DNA of 64,000 nt from a virus (IMGVR_UViG_2563366974_000010); one strand, 5' to 3'; shown: positions 2,576-41,654, counted from the stretch's first letter. The notes: a model not told the origin generated them from the sequence alone. A program made the numbers and translations.

Positions 2576-3268
2576 TTATGCGAATCTTTTATAATCGACT
2601 GACTGTCTCAGCAGTACTTTAGCCATGACGTAGAACGCGTCCTCATCTTCAGGCTCGACGTACCATTTTTCGTAAATCGGGTTATCGGATATTACTGCCA
2701 GCCTGTCTCGCTGCATCTGCAGGCGCTTAACGTGCAGTGTCTTCCCAAATACAAAGACGTATACACCGTCACCATCAAAGTGCGTAACACCGGTATCAAC
2801 GAAGATCTGATCACCTGGTGAAATAGTGCCGTCCATGCTGTCACCATTAACTGTGATCACTTTGACATGCGCAGCTGGACGATTGCCGAACAAGGCTCGC
2901 GCCTGCTCAGTCGTGTATTCAATGGCTCGGATAGTTTCAATGAAATCGCTGGTGACAATGCTGCCCGGCCCAGCGCTGGCTTTAACGTCGAGTACATCCA
3001 CGCGGTAAATCCCATTCAGTGACGGCTTAACCTGGTATAGCGCAGACGGTTCTCTTGCGCTACTTGAAGCCATTTCCCCTTCACCAGTAGACAGCCACTC
3101 CGGCCGCACACCCAGAACAGAGGCAATCTCAACAGTTTTACGGGAGCCGTTCGCTTCCTTGAGTAGCTTATTGACGCTGGACTGAGCCATGCCGACATCT
3201 TTGGCTAACCGGCCCTGTGTATATCCAGCATATTTCATTGCCTGCGCCAGGCGCTCCGAGAATCCCAT
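2576..3268 (-). CDS. cI: CI-like prophage repressor (N-terminal HTH, C-terminal LexA/S24-type autopeptidase domain)
   Basis: HTH motif QGRLAKDVGMAQSSVNKL; GDSM and VKRL motifs consistent with Ser-Lys dyad; start set at ATG 3268 (GAGGTG RBS) rather than GTG 3274. Confidence 0.85.
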   Translation of the reverse strand: MGFSERLAQAMKYAGYTQGRLAKDVGMAQSSVNKLLKEANGSRKTVEIASVLGVRPEWLSTGEGEMASSSAREPSALYQVKPSLNGIYRVDVLDVKASAGPGSIVTSDFIETIRAIEYTTEQARALFGNRPAAHVKVITVNGDSMDGTISPGDQIFVDTGVTHFDGDGVYVFVFGKTLHVKRLQMQRDRLAVISDNPIYEKWYVEPEDEDAFYVMAKVLLRQSVDYKRFA

Positions 3269-7922: not shown

Positions 7923-8105
7923 ATGTCTAACGAAGAAATGACTCCAGCAGAAAAATATAAAGCTTCAATGAAAAGACATAAAAAGTTCTGGAGTAAATCA
8001 CAAATTGCAAATGCGAAACGGTTTGATGCTGGAGAGGTTGAATCTGTTGATGGTTTTAGATCTCCTTATGAGACCAGAAAGAAGAGAGGGAGGACTGCTG
8101 ACTAA
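7923..8105 (+). CDS. Hypothetical small protein (60 aa)
   Basis: ORF track; GAGGGGG RBS. Confidence 0.4.
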
Positions 8106-8359
8106 TGTCTGACTGGAACATTGCAGCAAAGCCGCAGGAAGAACGCGACAAGGTTAATGTTGACCTGGCAGCCTCCGGCGTGGCCTACAAAGAGCGCCTG
8201 AATATGCCGGTTATCGCCGAGCAGGTAGCTCGTGAGCAACCAGAGCATCTACGAGAGTATTTCATGGATCGCGTGCGGCACTATCGCGAGCAGAGCGTTG
8301 CATTGCCTAAGGCATCTGATCCTCGCTACATTGAAATGACTGAGCAAAATGCAAAATAA
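8105..8359 (+). CDS. Hypothetical protein (84 aa)
   Basis: ORF track; start overlaps upstream stop. Confidence 0.45.
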
Positions 8360-17560: not shown

Positions 17561-18910
17561 ATGAATGACAAATTAACTCTCGCCGTCAACCATGCGTTGA
17601 ACGATGCGCGGATGGCTCGCGCCCGTATGGGGCTGATGGCGCCTACAATGGGGCTGGACAACAAGCGCCACTCTGCATGGTGCGAGTATGGATTCCCTGA
17701 GCAGGTAACCTACGAAAACCTTTATGCCCTGTACCGACGCGGTGGTATTGCCCACGGCGCAGTAGAGAAACTGGTGGGCAAGTGCTGGCAGACTAACCCG
17801 GAAATCATCGAGGGTGATCAGGCAGACAAAAAGCGCAAAGAAACCGCCTGGGAGAAAAAGGCCAAACAGGTATTCACCAACCGATTCTGGCGCTCATTCT
17901 CTGAGGCCGATCGCCGTCGTCTGGTGGGCCGTTATGCTGGCATCCTTCTGCACGTCCGCGATGAAAAAGACTGGAACCTTCCGGTAACCAAAGGGCGAGG
18001 TCTTCAGAAAATATCGGTGGCGTGGGCAGGATCGCTTACGGTGAGCGAGTGGGACACTGGCCTGAACTCGAAGACGTACGGCCAGCCTCAGATGTGGCAG
18101 TACGCCGAACGCTTGCCGAATGGTTCAAGTCGCCGCGTCAATATCCACCCCGATCGCGTTTTCATCCTTGGTGATTACTCAGACGATGCTATTGGCTTCC
18201 TTGAGCCAGCTTATAACGCCTTTGTAAGCCTGGAGAAGGTAGAGGGTGGATCCGGCGAGTCATTCCTGAAGAACGCCGCGCGCCAGCTTAATGTCAACTT
18301 TGAGAAGGAAATCGACTTCAACAATCTTGCGTCACTTTATGGCGTGAGCATTGACGAGTTGCAGGATAAGTTTAACGAAGTTGCCGGGGAAATGAACCGT
18401 GGCAACGATGTTTTGATGACAACCCAAGGGGCCACGGTCACACCGCTGGTGACTGCTGTAGCTGATCCTTCAGCGACCTATAACGTCAACCTGCAAACGG
18501 CTGCCGCCGGTGTTGATATCCCGACGCGCATTCTGGTTGGTAATCAGCAGGCCGAGCGCTCCAGCACCGAAGACCAGAAATACTTTAATGCTCGTTGTCA
18601 GTCGCGACGCGTAGACCTCTCTTTCGAAATAGAGGACTTCTGCGACAAGCTTATCGATCTACAAATCGTAGACTCAGTCAGTCAGAAGGCTGTTATCTGG
18701 GATGACCTTAACGAACAGACCGGTACTGAGAAGCTCACTAACGCCAAGACCATGGGCGAAATTAACCAGACCATGCAGGGCAGCGGCGAAGAGCCAGCGT
18801 TCAGCCGTGAAGAGATTCGTACAGCTGCGGGTTATGACAATGACGACGAAGAGCCGTTAGGAGAAGAGGATGGCGACGAACAAGACGAAGCCACCAATTC
18901 TACCGCGTAA
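17561..18910 (+). CDS. Putative portal protein
   Basis: About 450 aa, acidic C-terminus, follows terminase; by position and size. Confidence 0.55.
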   Translation: MNDKLTLAVNHALNDARMARARMGLMAPTMGLDNKRHSAWCEYGFPEQVTYENLYALYRRGGIAHGAVEKLVGKCWQTNPEIIEGDQADKKRKETAWEKKAKQVFTNRFWRSFSEADRRRLVGRYAGILLHVRDEKDWNLPVTKGRGLQKISVAWAGSLTVSEWDTGLNSKTYGQPQMWQYAERLPNGSSRRVNIHPDRVFILGDYSDDAIGFLEPAYNAFVSLEKVEGGSGESFLKNAARQLNVNFEKEIDFNNLASLYGVSIDELQDKFNEVAGEMNRGNDVLMTTQGATVTPLVTAVADPSATYNVNLQTAAAGVDIPTRILVGNQQAERSSTEDQKYFNARCQSRRVDLSFEIEDFCDKLIDLQIVDSVSQKAVIWDDLNEQTGTEKLTNAKTMGEINQTMQGSGEEPAFSREEIRTAAGYDNDDEEPLGEEDGDEQDEATNSTA

Positions 18911-33709: not shown

Positions 33710-36292
33710 ATGGCCACTACACCTACTAATCTGCCAGTACCTAGCGAATCCCCGCGCGACCTGAAATTTAACGCAGGGAAAATTGATGAGTTCGTGACTT
33801 CATTCGCTCTTAGTTATATTGACCGCTTTGGAGATGAACACTACACGATTGAAGGATTAAGATGGCTTGCACAGCGGGCTATAGCTGAATTTGGATGGAT
33901 ACCTATCGGGACATTTCAGAGCGGCGCTGTTATAACTCTACCAAATCAAATATTAAAAGATGAAAATGATGGAGAATACTATAGATGGGATGGGCCGCTT
34001 CCTAAAATCGTTTCTCCTAATTCAACACCTGATAGTGCCGGGGGAATAGGTAAAGGCAAATGGATAGGTGTAGGCGATGCCAGCTTACGTAGTGCTATTA
34101 CTGAGACAACGAAAAAATACACTACATTTACAGACGCCATCAATTCTACTATTGATCTAGTTATCGGGTGCGTTATTACTGGTGGAAGAGTTTCCATCAA
34201 TGACGGAGGTGGCGGCATATACGTCAGGAACGGAACTGGCACGGCAGGAGATACAGATGGAGGAAGTTACTTTGTTACCCCTGATGGGTCAAGGTTTGAC
34301 TTAGTATCACCTGCAAATATTTCAACTTTTGGCGGCGTTCCTGGGCATGACTACCGTGCTGCTCTTGACGGTATAAAATCGTATGTTTCAACAAGAGATA
34401 AGGTAATTAGAATTAATTCTAAAACTATTGTTAGTATGGTATTTACACCAGAGATTCCTGCTGGATACTGGAATGGATTCATACTTGACGTAGATGATAG
34501 CGTGACAATTAATACCGCAAGCGATGAAGCTGTCAAATCACCATTGGTAAAACTTGTCAGACCTGTAAAATTCTTTTTTACTGGTAATAGCACCAGTTAT
34601 TTATTACGTTCAAGTGTTGGAATTACAAAAGGTGAATATACACCACTTGTTCCAGGTACATTACCAACTCCGCCGATCATAAAAAATGCAAACTACACAG
34701 ATAATAAAACGTTATTTTGTGATATTCAGGATAAAGAAACTCCGGTCTTGACGGTTTTTACCTCTGGATGGTCTTTTCTGTCAGGTGTATGGCCTATGGG
34801 TGTTGTTGCGGATACACCTGCAGCGTCACTGGCTGGGGATGCAGTATCAATTCCAGCCCCTACAGGGAATCTTGTTTTTGCTGCATACAGCAGAGTGAAG
34901 CCGTGCTCTGAATATTTCTTGTCGATGTATGAGGGTGACAACACCGGTGGTCTGCCATGCGTTGTGGTTGAAGCTGAAAGTATGCGTTGGATCTATTACG
35001 AGGATCATTTTGGACATGGTAATTTAATTGAGGGAACAATTGGCGGAGCATACTCTACAAAAAGCATTGCATATGCTGGATCTGATACTCATGCTTCACA
35101 ATGGCTAAAAAACAGTATTGCATCCGTTCGTGTTGATACGCTTAAGTCATTCACTATCCTGGTTAACGGGATAGAGCGAGTTACAATTCGTCAAACCGGG
35201 AGAATCATTGGTCGTGTAGGATTTGGATCACTTGGCGATGGCGGTAAGTATATGTCTGTCTTCTATCCATACATTATCGAAAATCGACAATACCGCTCTG
35301 CAAAACCGATAAATATCGCTGTTGTAGGCGATTCAATCACTGATGCCTCTATGGGAAATGGATGGGTACAGTTCGCGCAACAAGCACTAGAAGGAACTCA
35401 CGGCATTCGCGTTGGACGTATGCAGACAATTGCAATAAATGGGTATGCATCAGGAGATATCGCTAATATATTTAATGTCACATCGTTGGATGATATCGAT
35501 GTAGTGCTTTTCCAAATCGGAGTGAATGATATTCAAAGGCAATCCGGACGAGAGGCATTACGAAATAACGTTAAGCAGATGATGCTGACTGCAAATAACC
35601 TTGGGATTCCCTGCATTGTATCTTTGCCTACACAGTTCTATACCAGAGATCAGAGTGTTACGTTAACCGGGGTTGCTGGTTATGGACAGCCTTCGGCAAA
35701 TTACGAGCTTGGGGCGCTTTACAGGGCGATACTTGCCAGCACAGTAGCTGTTCGTAATACAGAGGTTAATCAGCCGCTTAATGCCCTGAATACTGGTTCT
35801 CTTGACGATCTCGGACCAATCGTAGCCGAATATCTCCTGACAAATCAGGACCCTGTTGTTATGGACAACATTCACCCGACCACATACGGAAGAATTCTTC
35901 TCGGCTTGTCAAATGCCAGAGCTATTGCATCACATATGTTCGGTAGACGTAATGATCCTATAATTAACCACTGGATGCCAGGTGCGTGGGGGGCAAATAA
36001 CTGGTCAGTAACTTCACTGGTTCGTGCTGCTGTAACATCATATCCCGATGGTAAAATTGCATTAACTGGCACTATCGCTAACATCGGAACAGGTATAACC
36101 GCCGACGGTACGACAGTATGCAACCTTCCGTTGAGCATCTCGCCAGTTAGGAAAATGGCATTTTCTGTTACAAAACTTGATGCAAGTGGCCTCCCTATTG
36201 GACAGGGTAATATTGTTATTGATACAAATGGAACTGTTAAAATATACGGATTTCAAACGGGGAATGTGTCACTAGACGGGGTGTTATATTGA
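33710..36292 (+). CDS. Tail fibre / tailspike with SGNH (GDSL) esterase domain
   Basis: Internal blocks VVGDSITDAS (GDS block), FQIGVNDI (GxND), DNIHPT (DxxH); N-terminal fibre-anchor-like region. Confidence 0.65.
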   Translation: MATTPTNLPVPSESPRDLKFNAGKIDEFVTSFALSYIDRFGDEHYTIEGLRWLAQRAIAEFGWIPIGTFQSGAVITLPNQILKDENDGEYYRWDGPLPKIVSPNSTPDSAGGIGKGKWIGVGDASLRSAITETTKKYTTFTDAINSTIDLVIGCVITGGRVSINDGGGGIYVRNGTGTAGDTDGGSYFVTPDGSRFDLVSPANISTFGGVPGHDYRAALDGIKSYVSTRDKVIRINSKTIVSMVFTPEIPAGYWNGFILDVDDSVTINTASDEAVKSPLVKLVRPVKFFFTGNSTSYLLRSSVGITKGEYTPLVPGTLPTPPIIKNANYTDNKTLFCDIQDKETPVLTVFTSGWSFLSGVWPMGVVADTPAASLAGDAVSIPAPTGNLVFAAYSRVKPCSEYFLSMYEGDNTGGLPCVVVEAESMRWIYYEDHFGHGNLIEGTIGGAYSTKSIAYAGSDTHASQWLKNSIASVRVDTLKSFTILVNGIERVTIRQTGRIIGRVGFGSLGDGGKYMSVFYPYIIENRQYRSAKPINIAVVGDSITDASMGNGWVQFAQQALEGTHGIRVGRMQTIAINGYASGDIANIFNVTSLDDIDVVLFQIGVNDIQRQSGREALRNNVKQMMLTANNLGIPCIVSLPTQFYTRDQSVTLTGVAGYGQPSANYELGALYRAILASTVAVRNTEVNQPLNALNTGSLDDLGPIVAEYLLTNQDPVVMDNIHPTTYGRILLGLSNARAIASHMFGRRNDPIINHWMPGAWGANNWSVTSLVRAAVTSYPDGKIALTGTIANIGTGITADGTTVCNLPLSISPVRKMAFSVTKLDASGLPIGQGNIVIDTNGTVKIYGFQTGNVSLDGVLY

Positions 36293-36298
36293 AGGTAA

Positions 36299-36322
36299 GG
36301 GGTGATAAAACACCCCTATTTT
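36299..36322 (+). terminator. Intrinsic terminator after tail fibre gene
   Basis: GGGGTG-ataaaa-CACCCC then TATTTTATT. Confidence 0.55.
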
Positions 36323-36328
36323 ATTGCA

Positions 36329-37414
36329 CTAAATAAAACGCCTTGTAAATTTTGCTATTTTTTTCTCAATCAACGAGTGAACTAAGCACCCTGTAATAAT
36401 GCTAAATAACACATAAAAAGCAAGGTACATAAATACACTGGTATGCAGATGTAGTTCCAGTCGCTCCCACCAGTGCGCAAGCAATGATGTAAATAAGCCA
36501 TGTATGAGGTATATGCAGTACGAAGCATTACCTAAGTAAACTAATATATTCGGAGTCTTTACTTTACCCTCAAGGCTAATTGTTGCCCATACGATGTAAA
36601 AAGAAAACGCTCCCCATATAAGAGGTCTGTGCCATAAGTTCCCTACATACGTAGTTATTAAATATTTTTCAAGGATATAAAATAAAGGCAACGAACAAAT
36701 CAATATAGCAGTAGCAAGTTTGGCGTTAAGAAATATTTTTGATATGTACAGTCTGTACATAAACATACCCAAAGCAAACTCAATCATTACTGGCTGAGAG
36801 ATTACCTCAATTGGAGGGAAATACGCTTTAATAAAATTTGCGGCATGCTCGTTTTTAACTAAAATGTTACAAACGATAACTATTGTCACAAATGAAATTT
36901 CTATTTTCTCTATTTTTGAAACGCCAATTGCAATAAAAATAGCGAAGATAGCATAAAAGAAAAATTCAAACTGAAGAGTCCACCCAACACCTAGTATTGG
37001 TCCCTTATCCCAATGGGTGAACGTTATGCTCCTAAAAAAATACACTAAATCTATTTTATCAGATGGAAACCAAAAAAGTAACGGTCTTGCTGGGGAGGTG
37101 ATTTGGTATGAAACCAAATAAGAGACATAAACAGCACATGCCGTAAGGATAATATATAAAGGAAGTATCCTAACCAATCTTCTTAAAAAGAACTTTGCCG
37201 CTGAAATATTAAATGGCCCATCAGCTTTTTTACCTCCATAAGCAATAAAAGGCATTATAAACCCACTAATTATAAAAAATATATCAACACCTATACCACC
37301 AAGGCCTGACATCCTTATTCCATACATTACAATCTCAGAATGTGCAATGACGACAATCAATGCGGCAAAGAAGCGCAATACCTGTATGTTATAAATTGTT
37401 TGTTTGTTATCCAT
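36329..37414 (-). CDS. Membrane acyltransferase (acyltransferase-3 / OafA-Oac-like)
   Basis: N-terminal VLRFFAALIVVIAHS motif, about 10 TM helices, AT-rich gene. Confidence 0.75.
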   Translation of the reverse strand: MDNKQTIYNIQVLRFFAALIVVIAHSEIVMYGIRMSGLGGIGVDIFFIISGFIMPFIAYGGKKADGPFNISAAKFFLRRLVRILPLYIILTACAVYVSYLVSYQITSPARPLLFWFPSDKIDLVYFFRSITFTHWDKGPILGVGWTLQFEFFFYAIFAIFIAIGVSKIEKIEISFVTIVIVCNILVKNEHAANFIKAYFPPIEVISQPVMIEFALGMFMYRLYISKIFLNAKLATAILICSLPLFYILEKYLITTYVGNLWHRPLIWGAFSFYIVWATISLEGKVKTPNILVYLGNASYCIYLIHGLFTSLLAHWWERLELHLHTSVFMYLAFYVLFSIITGCLVHSLIEKKIAKFTRRFI

Positions 37415-37728
37415 TTTTTAATAATTGGTAATTACGTGCTTAAGGTTCCAAAAGATTCCAGTTATTCACTGGGGCTGTAAGATTTTAACATCAATGCTTG
37501 ATGGTTGACACACTGAATGCAGTTTAATATTTAATAACAACAAAATAATAACCAACTGTAATTAGCATGCTATAAATAACGTTGAAGATTACATCTCATG
37601 CTTCTATATCGCAGTAAAGTCAACATAGATTAACTTCTGCTTTTCCATCCACAACTTTATCTCAAGCTACAACAACAAGTTGCATGCTAACTATTTCACG
37701 GTACTTGATGTGCGCTCTGTAAGAGTAG

Positions 37729-37748
37729 TACTGTATGTATAAACAGTA
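37729..37748 (+). promoter_or_regulatory. LexA (SOS) box TACTGTATGTATAAACAGTA
   Basis: CTGT-N8-ACAG palindrome 19 nt upstream of the UmuD-prime-like start. Confidence 0.75.
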
Positions 37749-37766
37749 TTTATGGGAGTGCAAATC

Positions 37767-38138
37767 ATGGAGTCCCAATTCCCCGCAGCAGATTATGCAG
37801 TAGAGCGTATCTCACTGGACGGCAGGATCATTACAAGCCCAGCGTCGACATATTTGATGCTGGCAGCAGAGACTATCTGGCGCGCAGGCATTATGAAAGA
37901 TGCAATGCTTGTCGTGGACAGCGCTGTACATCCCATTGATGGTTCTATTATCGTATGCCAGTTCAACGGTGAACTTCGTCTTAAGCGCTTGAGGTTAGCT
38001 CCTGCTCGATGCCTTGAAGATCTTAACTATCCAGACCGGCATCAGATGCTGACGTCTGAAACTCTCATTATGGGAGTTGTGACATATATCATCAACGATG
38101 CCCGTAGTGGTGAGTTTGACGACAGCCCGGTGATCTGA
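37767..38138 (+). CDS. UmuD-prime-like protein (truncated UmuD homologue lacking cleavage site)
   Basis: S24-fold C-terminal region with LKRL Lys motif; PAADY motif; no N-terminal extension with Cys-Gly cleavage site; canonical GDSM appears replaced (ETIW). Confidence 0.65.
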
Positions 38139-39406
38139 TGTTTGCCCTGGTTGATGTAAATTCATTTTATGCGAGTTGTGAGACGGTATTCAGGCCTGAC
38201 CTGAAAGGAAAACCGGTTGTTGTGCTGTCGAATAACGATGGCTGCGTGATTGCGCGCTCTGCTGAAGCGAAACTGCTCGGCGTCAAAATGGGTGACCCGT
38301 ACTTCAAACAGAAAGACCTGTTCACGCGGTGCGGAGTTGTCTGCTTCAGCAGCAATTACGAGCTCTATGCGGACATGTCCAACCGGGTGATGACAACGCT
38401 CGAAGAGATGTCGCCGCGCTGCGAAATATACTCAATAGACGAGGCTTTCTGTGACCTTACCGGGGTTCGTAATTGCAGAGTTCTGGAAGACTTTGGACAG
38501 GAACTAAAGGACGCTGTATACCGTAACACGCGGCTTGCTGTCGGCGTTGGGATAGGGCAGACAAAGACACTGGCGAAACTGGCAAATCATGCTGCAAAAC
38601 GATGGCAGCACAAGACAGGTGGAGTTGTTGACCTGTCTAACGTCGAGCGTCAGCGCAAACTGATGGCAGCACTTCCTGTTGATGAGACATGGGGAGTGGG
38701 CCGGCGCATTACCAAAAAGCTCGAGGCTATGGGGATCAAGACGGTTCTCGACCTGGCTGATACTGACATACGATTTATTCGTAAACATTTTAATGTGGTT
38801 TTGGAAAGGACTGTGCGTGAGCTGCGAGGAGAGCAGTGTCTAGAACTGGAAGAGTTTGCACCCGTAAAACAAGAGATTGTATGTAGCCGCTCATTCGGCG
38901 AACGAGTCACTGAATACGATGCAATGCGGCAGGCTATCTGTAGCTACGCGTCGCGAGCAGCGGAGAAGTTGCGTGGAGAGCATCAGTATTGCCGGTTTAT
39001 CTCTGCGTTCGTCAAAACGTCACCATTCGCGCTTAATGAGCCATATTACGGTAACAGCGCATCGGTGAAGTTGCTGACACCGACGCAAGATAGCCGGGAC
39101 ATCATTGCGGCGGCCACTAAGTGCCTTGATGCTATATGGAAAGATGGTCACCGATACCAGAAAGCGGGCGTGATGCTCGGAGACTTCTTCAGTCAGGGCG
39201 TCGCACAACTTAACCTGTTTGATGACAATGCACCTCGCGTCGGAAGTGAGAAGCTGATGGAAGTTCTGGATCAACTCAACACTAAAGGCGGGAGAGGTAC
39301 GCTGTATTTTGCAGGGCAGGGCATCCAGCAGCAGTGGGCGATGAAACGAGAAATGCTTTCGCCGCGGTACACAACAAGATTTTCCGATCTGCTGCGCGTT
39401 AAGTAA
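38138..39406 (+). CDS. umuC: Y-family DNA polymerase UmuC (Pol V catalytic subunit)
   Basis: N-terminus [15 protein letters not shown] and overall UmuC-like sequence. Confidence 0.9.
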
Positions 39407-40070
39407 CGAGTTCAATCAACTCCGGCCCCTGATTTTTCACATTACCAACGGAGCGCGTCACGGCGTGCCAGATAAACTTGTCGGCGGAAACCGCTCCGTC
39501 GGCTGCTATCTCTTCCGCTTCTTTCCCGCCTATATCCTGGCGCATCCACTCACGGGCCGCTTCAGGTGACAGAACAAGCGGCCGTCTGTCGTGAATGTCG
39601 ACCAGTCCTTTATCAGCTGCAGATGTCACTATCAGAAAGCCCTCAGCGTCATCACCGCGCTCAAATGGCGTGCTGCCTATAGCTGCCATAAAGATTGGCT
39701 GACCGTCGGCACGGTGAATGAAGTAGGGCTGTTTCTTGTCGCCTTCCTTTTTCCATTCGAACCAGCCATCAGCAAAGCAGATCGCCCGGCCATGTTGCCA
39801 GAGAGGTTTGAACATTCGGCTGGTGGCTGCGGTTTCGACGCGTGAGTTAATCAGCGGCGGTTTATCCCACCACCCGGGAGCGTATCCCCAGAACACTGGA
39901 TCGAGATGCAGCTGCTCGTCGCGTTCGCTCAGCAGCAGAACTTTGGTGCCTGGCGCAACGTTGTAGCGTCCAATCGGCTCCGGGTCGTACGCGATGTCGC
40001 GATCGGCTTCATCCGCCAGGTAAGCCAGGTATTCTTCACGCGTTTGAGCTTGTGCAAAACGTCCACACAT
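39399..40070 (-). CDS. yedK: SOS-response-associated peptidase (SRAP / YedK-like)
   Basis: Starts MCGRF (catalytic Cys2 hallmark of SRAP/HMCES proteins); about 223 aa. Confidence 0.85.
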
Positions 40071-40233
40071 AGGAACCTCCAGCCAGATGTCAGACTGAAA
40101 GTATAGGGTAGGGAGAAAAAACTGGTGCGCACCGAAACTCTATGATTTTGAAACAGGGGCATGATGATGGAAGTCATCGAGGCGGTAAAGCGGGGTTTTG
40201 CGAAACTGGAAGGAGCTACGCAAAACGCAGCTG

Positions 40234-40276
40234 AAAAAAAAGCACGCTTCGTACAAAGTGTACATTAAAGCGTGCT
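40234..40276 (-). terminator. Intrinsic terminator downstream of yciB
   Basis: AGCACGCTT / AAGCGTGCT stem with 8-nt U-run on minus strand. Confidence 0.6.
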
Positions 40277-40344
40277 TTTAATCATAATTTCATGTCAATA
40301 TCATAACTAACTAATTGAAATTGATGTGTTTTAAGTGTTATTTA

Positions 40345-40881
40345 TTACTTCTCTTCCTGCGGCATGTGGCGGTAGATATAGATACCGCTTAACAATGTGA
40401 AGATTAAGGTAAGGGCGGTCAGGCCAAAGACTTTAAAGTTGACCCAAATATTTTGCGGCAGCCAGAATGCGATGTAGATGTTTGCCAGACCGCAAAGGAT
40501 AAAGAAAACAGCCCAGGCCAGATTCAGCTTCGACCATACCGATTGCGGCAGGGTGAGTTCTTTACCCAGCATCCGCTGAATTAGCGGCTTTTTCATCACC
40601 CATTGGCTGACTAACAGGGCACCCGCAAACAGGGCATAAATGACAGTAACCTTCCATTTAATAAACTCATCATTGTGGAAGAACAGCGTCAAGCCACCGA
40701 AGACGACCACCAGAACAAAAGTGATCAGGGCCATCTTCTCAACCTTACGAAAGCGAACCCAGCTATATATAAGCACAATCGCCGTGGCGACGATGAGCGC
40801 CGCAGTAGCCGCATAGATGTCATAAATCTTGTAAAACGCGAAAAAGACAACCAGCGGTAAAAAATCAAGAAACTGCTTCAT
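40345..40881 (-). CDS. yciB: Inner membrane protein YciB (intracellular septation protein A)
   Basis: [27 protein letters not shown]... multi-TM protein recognised as YciB. Confidence 0.85.
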
Positions 40882-40910
40882 TTTACGATTCCGTAATCAA
40901 ATGCTTAAGG

Positions 40911-41654
40911 TTATTGGCGAATCAACATATACAGGCGGAACAGATAGATGAGCAATACGGCTGAAATCAGGTTGCTCAAGGTGTTCGCCAGTACGGCACC
41001 AATTTCCGGGGTTAATGCGGCAAAAGAAGAGGCAAAAAGCAGCAACAGTGTTTTTGCCAGCAACCAGCTCAGTACTGCGGGTGCCACCAGACGCATATTC
41101 GCCCATGTCAGCCGCATACTGCTACGCATCGAGGCAAAAACGCCCATTTTGTCCTGTACCAGCATCACCGGTGCCAGAGCCAGTAAAATGGCCATGATAA
41201 TTCCCGGAACGACCACCAGCATGATGCCAATCTGTACTAAAAGGGTAGTCAGAAAAATCAGAATAAATAACTTTGGTAATATCGGCGCACTGGCACCAAT
41301 AGCTCGCAGCGCACTGACTCTCTGACCCGCAGACACCAGCTGGATAATTAATATTACGCCCCCGGCGAGAATGGCGTTACCGATTAATCCTGAAAAAGTG
41401 GACGCCGCTGAAGCCTGCAGCAAAATTTGTTGCTGTTCCGGTGACATATTCTGAACCAGGTCGAACAACCCACTACTGCCGCTAACGGGTACGCCGTCAT
41501 TGAGCTGCGCAAGCTGTGCATCACTGGGTGAGAAAACATGCCCTAACACCACTGTGATAAACGCACATAGCAACGATACCAACAGAATGGTCATAAATTG
41601 ATTACGGAAAAAATTTCCGGTGTCACGGTATACGGACTGCGCCGTGATAGACAT
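40911..41654 (-). CDS. yciC: Membrane protein YciC (UPF0259)
   Basis: 247-aa multi-TM protein adjacent to yciB and ompW. Confidence 0.8.

Follow-up and report, generated by a model that had tools for sequence, protein, structure and literature searches.

A LexA-Boxed humD-like-umuC Operon with an Adjoining SRAP Gene at the attR End of a Lambdoid Prophage: A Probable Second DNA Polymerase V with a HumD-Family Subunit

The cleavage of UmuD serves as the classical late checkpoint of the SOS response, by which the mutagenic DNA polymerase V (Pol V) is delayed. Three described systems are among the closest to the locus analyzed here, a module of a humD-like gene, umuC and an SRAP gene in the viral DNA stretch IMGVR_UViG_2563366974_000010 (64,000 nucleotides; the whole stretch is referred to as the window). 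First, P1 HumD and its relatives N15 gp26, phiKO2, HK639 and HK140 (family NF051876) are UmuD'-sized proteins of the S24 fold that start at the position of UmuD Cys24. Their genes are morons of temperate phages, with a LexA box just 5' of the gene, and the proteins share a C-terminal tail and usually carry Thr at the position of UmuD Ser60. These HumD proteins are encoded solo and must use the UmuC of the host. In the annotation of the P1 record, a LexA site precedes HumD, and the protein 'functionally complements E. coli UmuD''; P1 humD is reportedly a stand-alone gene without a cognate umuC. Second, the umuDC loci of Escherichia coli, of the phages PHB10, Oslo and ENT39118 and of Klebsiella phi9.2 are LexA-boxed operons in the order D then C with overlapping stop and start codons. 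In temperate phages, they have the tail-fibre genes on one side and the integrase gene or att site on the other, and their D subunits are full-length proteins with a Cys/Ala-Gly cleavage site and a GDSM motif. Third, the neighbourhood of SRAP genes and UmuCD is a published association (Aravind et al. 2013). Both prophage-borne umuDC and phage HumD are known from the literature, and PHROGs contains families for all three module proteins.

The module in the window (conserved extent 37729-40134) resembles the P1-type HumDs in its LexA box, its tail, its Thr at the Ser60 position and the size and start of its small subunit. Instead of being solo, however, the humD-like gene is coupled to its own umuC via the overlap TGATG. 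The UmuC proteins of umuDC-type operons are 76-88% identical to that of the window, whereas the D subunit of the window has neither the cleavage site nor GDSM and falls below the cutoff of the UmuD model. The SRAP gene likewise adjoins a UmuC-UmuD dyad and its product shares about 87% identity with E. coli YedK; unlike yedK, it is phage-borne and located at the attR end, where an SRAP gene is also found in a related prophage without Pol V genes. All parts of the module belong to known curated families. What is new is that a HumD-type subunit is encoded in cis with a UmuC of its own, a rare arrangement rather than a new system, and a literature search found no description of a HumD-UmuC operon. 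The module is probably a moron cassette of a lambdoid, SOS-inducible E. coli prophage; located at the attR end, it would encode a second Pol V with a genetically 'pre-cleaved' UmuD' of the HumD family.

The operon is preceded by the LexA (SOS) box TACTGTATGTATAAACAGTA (37729-37748, unstranded), 19 nt 5' of the humD-like start codon. As stated in the original prediction, which had been made from the sequence of the window, this box is close to the consensus: it differs from TACTG(TA)5CAGTA by two mismatches (18/20; 0 sites expected by chance in 100 shuffles) and is the sole site in the 64-kb window with at most three mismatches. It contains the CTGT-N8-ACAG palindrome of LexA-regulated promoters and is identical to the E. 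coli umuDC box at 18 and to the humD box of phage HK639 at 19 of 20 positions. Equivalent boxes stand 5' of humD or umuD in all relatives examined, and the blastn homology of the module with other loci starts precisely at the box (37729). An Rfam search of window positions 36000-41500 gave no family match. The reading frame of the humD-like gene is open from 37752, or from the ATG at 37767, to 38138 on the plus strand. The latter start is favoured by the Prokaryotic Genome Annotation Pipeline in E. coli strains 20A24 and XJ5.2 and by the alignment of homologues, yields 123 aa and follows a Shine-Dalgarno-like GGGAG read from the sequence (37755-37759, plus strand) at a distance of 7 nt. Since an in-frame TAA (37740-37742) inside the LexA box closes the frame upstream, an N-terminal extension is blocked, and no UmuD-like leader or N-terminus is encoded upstream in any of the three frames. 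The humD-like stop codon and the umuC start codon overlap in TGATG (38138), by which both genes are translationally coupled. The 3' ends of umuC and of the convergent SRAP gene overlap by 8 nt (39399-39406) with no terminator in between, and this overlap is also kept in the copies of E. coli D9, Citrobacter and metagenomes.

The humD-like gene (37767-38138, plus strand) was assigned to a UmuD'-type Pol V accessory subunit on the basis of the HumD model, alignment and fold. The protein reached 151.4 bits with NF051876, the curated NCBIfam equivalog model of the HumD family (cutoff 120), and only 65.7 bits with the UmuD model NF007621 (cutoff 110). In contrast, the full-length prophage UmuD of E. 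coli D9 passes the UmuD model and fails the HumD model. A Pfam Peptidase_S24 domain was found, and UmuD' structures in PDB were matched with E = 3e-12. In the alignment with E. coli UmuD/UmuD', M1 pairs with UmuD Cys24; the humD-like protein therefore has no cleavage site, in line with the predicted loss of the N-terminal cleavage region. UmuD 'ASGDSMI' is represented by 'AA-ETIW', i.e., by a one-residue deletion, the exchange of D59 to E and that of S60 to T36 (37872-37874, plus strand), while K73 (37983-37985, plus strand) corresponds to Lys97. The earlier view that ETIW replaces GDSM and that the Lys motif LKRL is kept was essentially right, except that the position of the Ser is still there and occupied by Thr. 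Since Thr occupies the Ser60 column in 98 of 115 database homologues, it is the norm of the HumD family; the Lys97 column holds Lys in 88 of the 115. The family-invariant C-terminal tail (aa 109-123; 38091-38135, plus strand) was defined from the family alignment; among 73 sequences, each of its positions shows either no variation or a conservation of at least 90%. It is not present in UmuD/UmuD'; its end (EFDDxPV-COOH) is loosely like the acidic C-terminal tip of SSB (DFDDDIPF). An AlphaFold2 (AF2) model showed the UmuD'/S24 beta-barrel, with a core predicted local distance difference test score (pLDDT) above 90 and a flexible N-terminal arm and C-terminal tail. The top Foldseek matches of this model were 1umu, 1ay9 and 8gmt, with UmuD' as the best. 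By model scores and alignment, the humD-like protein genuinely belongs to the HumD family and is not a one-off degenerate UmuD, and a UmuD'-like function would follow from its homology to P1 HumD (about 50% identity).

The absence of the catalytic Ser and of the N-terminus could also indicate a decayed, non-functional UmuD remnant, in which case the prophage UmuC, if active, would rely on UmuD' of the host. The humD-like gene also evolves faster than umuC, split HumD-like genes occur in P22-like phages, and one Citrobacter allele lacks the last four residues (119 aa, with a short gap before umuC in place of the overlap). However, dN/dS (the ratio of nonsynonymous to synonymous substitution rates) between E. 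coli and Citrobacter copies was 0.13-0.2 for the humD-like gene and 0.03-0.05 for umuC, estimates which show purifying selection on both genes. The frame is intact, and the start/stop coupling to umuC is kept in the window and in most related UmuC-linked loci examined. Moreover, the score exceeds the equivalog cutoff, the invariant tail is retained, and loss of the Ser is normal in the HumD family, the founding member of which is reportedly functional. Decay is thus a very improbable explanation.

The second gene of the operon, umuC (38138-39406, plus strand), encodes a 422-aa Y-family polymerase, the full UmuC that had been predicted. It scored 854.7 bits with the UmuC model NF002955 (cutoff 431) and contains the Pfam domains IMS, IMS_C and DUF4113. 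The catalytic motif SIDEAF and the clamp motif QLNLF (position 357) are identical to those of native UmuC, and the overall identity to the native UmuC of 20A24 is 85.8%. Judged by these features, the UmuC of the module is otherwise ordinary, full length and intact. Ten residue positions specific to HumD-paired UmuC enzymes, with a loose cluster at 123-128, were set aside because they derive from too few independent lineages.

The adjoining SRAP/YedK-type gene (39399-40070, minus strand; 223 aa, MCGRF...) is convergent to umuC, as predicted. Its product was recognized by PF02586 (171 bits) and NF007413 (473.7 bits; cutoff 349) and matched E. coli YedK structures with E = 4e-136 and about 87% identity, with C2, N75, E105 and H160 aligned. 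By these matches, it is a YedK orthologue, and the identity to crystallised YedK suggests that it would covalently crosslink to abasic sites in single-stranded DNA (ssDNA). No CTG-N10-CAG (LexA) box was found upstream of the SRAP gene. Its upstream region (40071-40134, minus strand) travels with the module and marks the right limit of blastn homology to other prophages, which ends at 40134 in locus L029 and at 40106 in loci L009 and L035. SOS transcription of the humD-like-umuC operon could read antisense into the SRAP gene across the overlap.

In order to place the module in its genomic setting, sequence beyond the window was read from E. coli 20A24 as a proxy. The 2.8-kb block is 100% identical to this strain, and the whole window is collinear with it at 99.8-99.99%, except for the replaced segment 9770-15910. 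This prophage segment of about 6.1 kb has no counterpart in 20A24, where 5.2 kb are found instead; the window thus represents a sister lysogen and not 20A24 itself. In 20A24, a lambdoid prophage of about 47 kb lies between yciA (integrase end) and yciB, while only about 100 bp separate these genes in E. coli K-12. The att core TCTTCCTG was found by base-by-base comparison with K-12, whose sequence agrees with 20A24 at the yciA-side junction as far as TCTTCCTG and with the window from TCTTCCTG onward. At attR, the right end of the prophage, this 8-mer is located in the last codons/3' end of yciB (40352-40359, unstranded), distal to the SRAP gene; the prophage DNA therefore includes the SRAP gene and the adjoining 280 bp on its far side. 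The 10-bp repeat CTATGATTTT was rejected as att core since the composite empty site covered only 64% of the K-12 locus. Integration into the last yciB codons (window 40345-40359; L004:418-425) provides yciB with a new C-terminus and a terminator, and a terminator-like hairpin 3' of yciB (40242-40254, minus strand) lies within the prophage-derived sequence. The original prediction had placed the block at the prophage junction, between a tail-fibre end and yciB where yciA would be expected. The block does lie between phage genes, i.e., the tailspike and acyltransferase genes, and yciB; it is, however, inside the prophage, and yciA is found at the other prophage end in 20A24.

Since UmuC and the SRAP protein share 86% and about 87% identity with E. 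coli UmuC and YedK, respectively, the block might be taken for the strain's own, ancestral umuDC locus. However, 20A24, with a block 100% identical to that of the window, has an intact native umuDC between hlyE and dsbB, 70 kb away. The short yciA-yciB interval of K-12, the att core distal to the SRAP gene, the presence of the block in only 2 of 5426 E. coli genomes and the occurrence of the same module at the ends of different Citrobacter prophages also speak against a native locus. By synteny, this possibility is already refuted and its probability practically nil, and the assumption of acquired cargo was confirmed. The prophage encodes a CI-type repressor with a Peptidase_S24 domain (2576-3268, minus strand), in agreement with the annotation of 20A24. 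It reached 66 bits with PF00717 and 21.7 bits with Phage_CI_repr, just below the 22-bit cutoff. The S24 domain implies that the prophage is inducible in a manner dependent on activated RecA (RecA*), i.e., by SOS, and prophage and operon should therefore answer the same RecA* signal.

Among complete E. coli genomes, the module was present in 2 of 5426; it was also found in Citrobacter amalonaticus, in other Citrobacter prophages or prophage remnants and in a few metagenomic contigs. In a scan of genome contigs with the single protein, only one species representative was found. HumD-type genes as such are frequent, with 62 phage records, 683 plasmids and at least 456 IMG/VR loci, and are usually solo morons beside tail-fibre, gtr or integrase genes. 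Among the matches listed, the plasmids are mostly non-mobilizable replicons about 80-120 kb in size, which fits P1-like phage-plasmids; none is of the clade of the window. The IMG/VR neighbourhoods were sampled from the best 80 of at least 456 HumD loci, 52 of which had at least 400 nt of downstream sequence. A UmuC match followed in only four of these 52 (48 were without), all four belonging to the clade of the window. Conversely, four of the five UmuC-bearing sequenced phages inspected have a full-length cleavable UmuD, and the fifth, Enterobacter phage CobraSix (NC_071003.1), has a third type of D gene. This gene (L023:2196-2501) lies upstream of a UmuC gene whose product is 94% identical to D9 UmuC, and its 101-aa product has no FPSPAADY arm and a HumD-like C-terminus (..FINGAAAFTDDNPVM). 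The CobraSix D gene suggests that the small subunit of Pol V may have been swapped repeatedly.

Several relatives differ from the module of the window in instructive details. E. coli XJ5.2 (L002:1-1972) harbors a sister prophage that has been truncated by IS3 and bears qnrS1; between its humD-umuC genes and those of the window, a single base differs, and divergence jumps from the SRAP gene to yciB, i.e., the region is a mosaic. In Citrobacter-type prophages, a dinI homologue is oriented divergently from the humD-like gene (L009:5682-5921; L035:4682-4921), with two LexA boxes between both genes in L009. This pairing may be functional, as DinI modulates RecA; no such dinI homologue was found in the window. 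In E. coli 30EVA1 (L037:7338-8009), a related prophage ends in an SRAP gene without Pol V genes and adjoins the native yedK, while at L029:6639-7310 the SRAP gene of the module stands at the place expected for native yedK (with the neighbours yedF, yedE, yedD and amyA). These loci hint at a possible capture of the phage SRAP gene from the yedK locus. In the P22-like phages BTP1, MG40, ST-35 and vB_ST415_1NRH (L006:3992-4351), the HumD-like gene is in two pieces, apparently due to a frameshift; the annotation of vB_ST415_1NRH lists them as fragments of 'UmuD' and 'DNA polymerase'.

The origin of the operon was approached by comparison with the prophages of E. coli D9 and D4, which occupy the same yciA/yciB site. 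They share with the window the umuC-SRAP-yciB arrangement, including the convergent 8-nt overlap, but encode a full-length, autoproteolytic UmuD of 139 aa. The nucleotide homology of D9 to the window sets in precisely with the first base of umuC (38138), and the megablast matches of both D9 and D4 start from query base 653, i.e., at about window position 38152. The UmuC proteins share 82-88% identity, whether they are paired with HumD or with UmuD, while the D subunits are only 33-39% identical. Judged by these breakpoints, D9/D4 versus the window is a natural swap of the D subunit. In a bootstrapped neighbour-joining tree computed on a reduced sequence set, HumD was monophyletic in 100 of 100 replicates and the close UmuC-linked group (the window, P0002, P0003 and P0012) in 95 of 100. 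The solo HumDs formed a single clade in 0 of 100 replicates, which places the UmuC-linked group within their diversity; its sister in the single neighbour-joining tree was P0040, which is likewise UmuC-linked. The simplest history would be the replacement of umuD by a solo-type humD, which brought along its own LexA-boxed leader, in front of a phage-borne but otherwise ordinary enterobacterial umuC-yedK segment.

Several points weigh against the proposed second Pol V. A simple sigma-70 consensus scan found no -35/-10 pair at the LexA box TACTGTATGTATAAACAGTA. The yciA end and the native umuDC locus were seen in 20A24, which is near-identical and not identical to the window. P1 HumD, the closest characterised relative, is the sole characterised HumD and shares only about 50% identity with the humD-like protein. 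The first four residues of the latter are ESQF as compared to GFPS in UmuD' and solo HumDs, and the N-terminal arms vary more in the UmuC-linked HumD clade; in the published Pol V model, the N-terminus of UmuD' sits near the active site of UmuC. This diverged arm would also fit a modulator, i.e., a protein that titrates UmuC, RecA* or host UmuD, that acts as a checkpoint like uncleaved UmuD2C or that binds another partner through its acidic tail. In favour of such a role, the tail is the best conserved part of the HumD family, absent from UmuD and flexible in the AF2 model, and the divergent dinI, a RecA modulator gene, adjoins some Citrobacter versions. On the other hand, the humD-like gene is strictly coupled in an operon to an intact, strongly constrained UmuC, and according to the annotation of the P1 record, UmuD' function is restored by HumD. 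In addition, the arm motif PAADY..ERI.L is conserved, and this part of UmuD' is modelled to insert into UmuC in the published Pol V structure model. A modulator is therefore considered unlikely, and a second Pol V with a HumD-family UmuD' is preferred.

For this second Pol V, the following mechanism is proposed. In the lysogen, LexA would repress the humD-like-umuC operon. Upon DNA damage, RecA* would cause the joint cleavage of LexA and of the S24-type phage repressor, and the humD-like protein and UmuC would be co-translated from the derepressed operon in stoichiometric amounts. A dimer of the humD-like protein would bind UmuC directly, without the slow RecA*-mediated conversion of UmuD to UmuD', and the resulting HumD2-UmuC would still require RecA-ATP to form an active mutasome. 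The outcome would be an immediate bypass of lesions on host and phage DNA in the style of Weigle reactivation, at the cost of mutagenesis, while the adjacent YedK orthologue, without a LexA box, would covalently shield abasic sites in ssDNA. In a bolder version, HumD in cis would remove both the RecA* cleavage timer and the brake set by UmuD/UmuD' heterodimers, so that lysogens and the induced phage would gain immediate and stronger translesion synthesis and mutagenesis by a pre-activated Pol V; the tail EFDDxPV-COOH would be a new docking motif, e.g., one resembling the SSB tip, and would endow HumD-type subunits with a property not found in UmuD'. This version is rather doubtful.

Further genes of the prophage were observed outside the module. 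Just upstream of it, at window positions 33710-37414, the gene for a tailspike containing an SGNH/GDSL esterase domain is succeeded by an acyltransferase-3 gene in divergent orientation; both are probably morons that modify the O-antigen. A homologue of the DNA polymerase III theta subunit is encoded at 8105-8359 (PF06440, 119 bits); in P1, the theta homologue hot adjoins humD. At about 17561-18910, a 449-aa gene (WAZ56_RS16100 in 20A24) is annotated by RefSeq as 'anti-CBASS protein Acb1 family'. It is located just 3' of the large terminase gene, with one small gene in between, where the portal gene would be expected.

Since the components of the module are already named by annotation pipelines, the known picture is refined and not overturned, and the main value of the locus would be that of a tool for studying the UmuD-cleavage checkpoint. 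If the proposed reading is true, a mobile operon with a pre-truncated subunit and its own polymerase bypasses this checkpoint and is still gated by LexA. The same yciA/yciB site with either full-length UmuD (D9, D4) or the HumD type (window, XJ5.2) constitutes a near-isogenic natural pair. This pair would allow one to ask what the benefit of the cleavage step is and why temperate phages carry UmuD' analogues. On the practical side, the module may bear on SOS-driven mutagenesis in lysogens, e.g., under quinolones.

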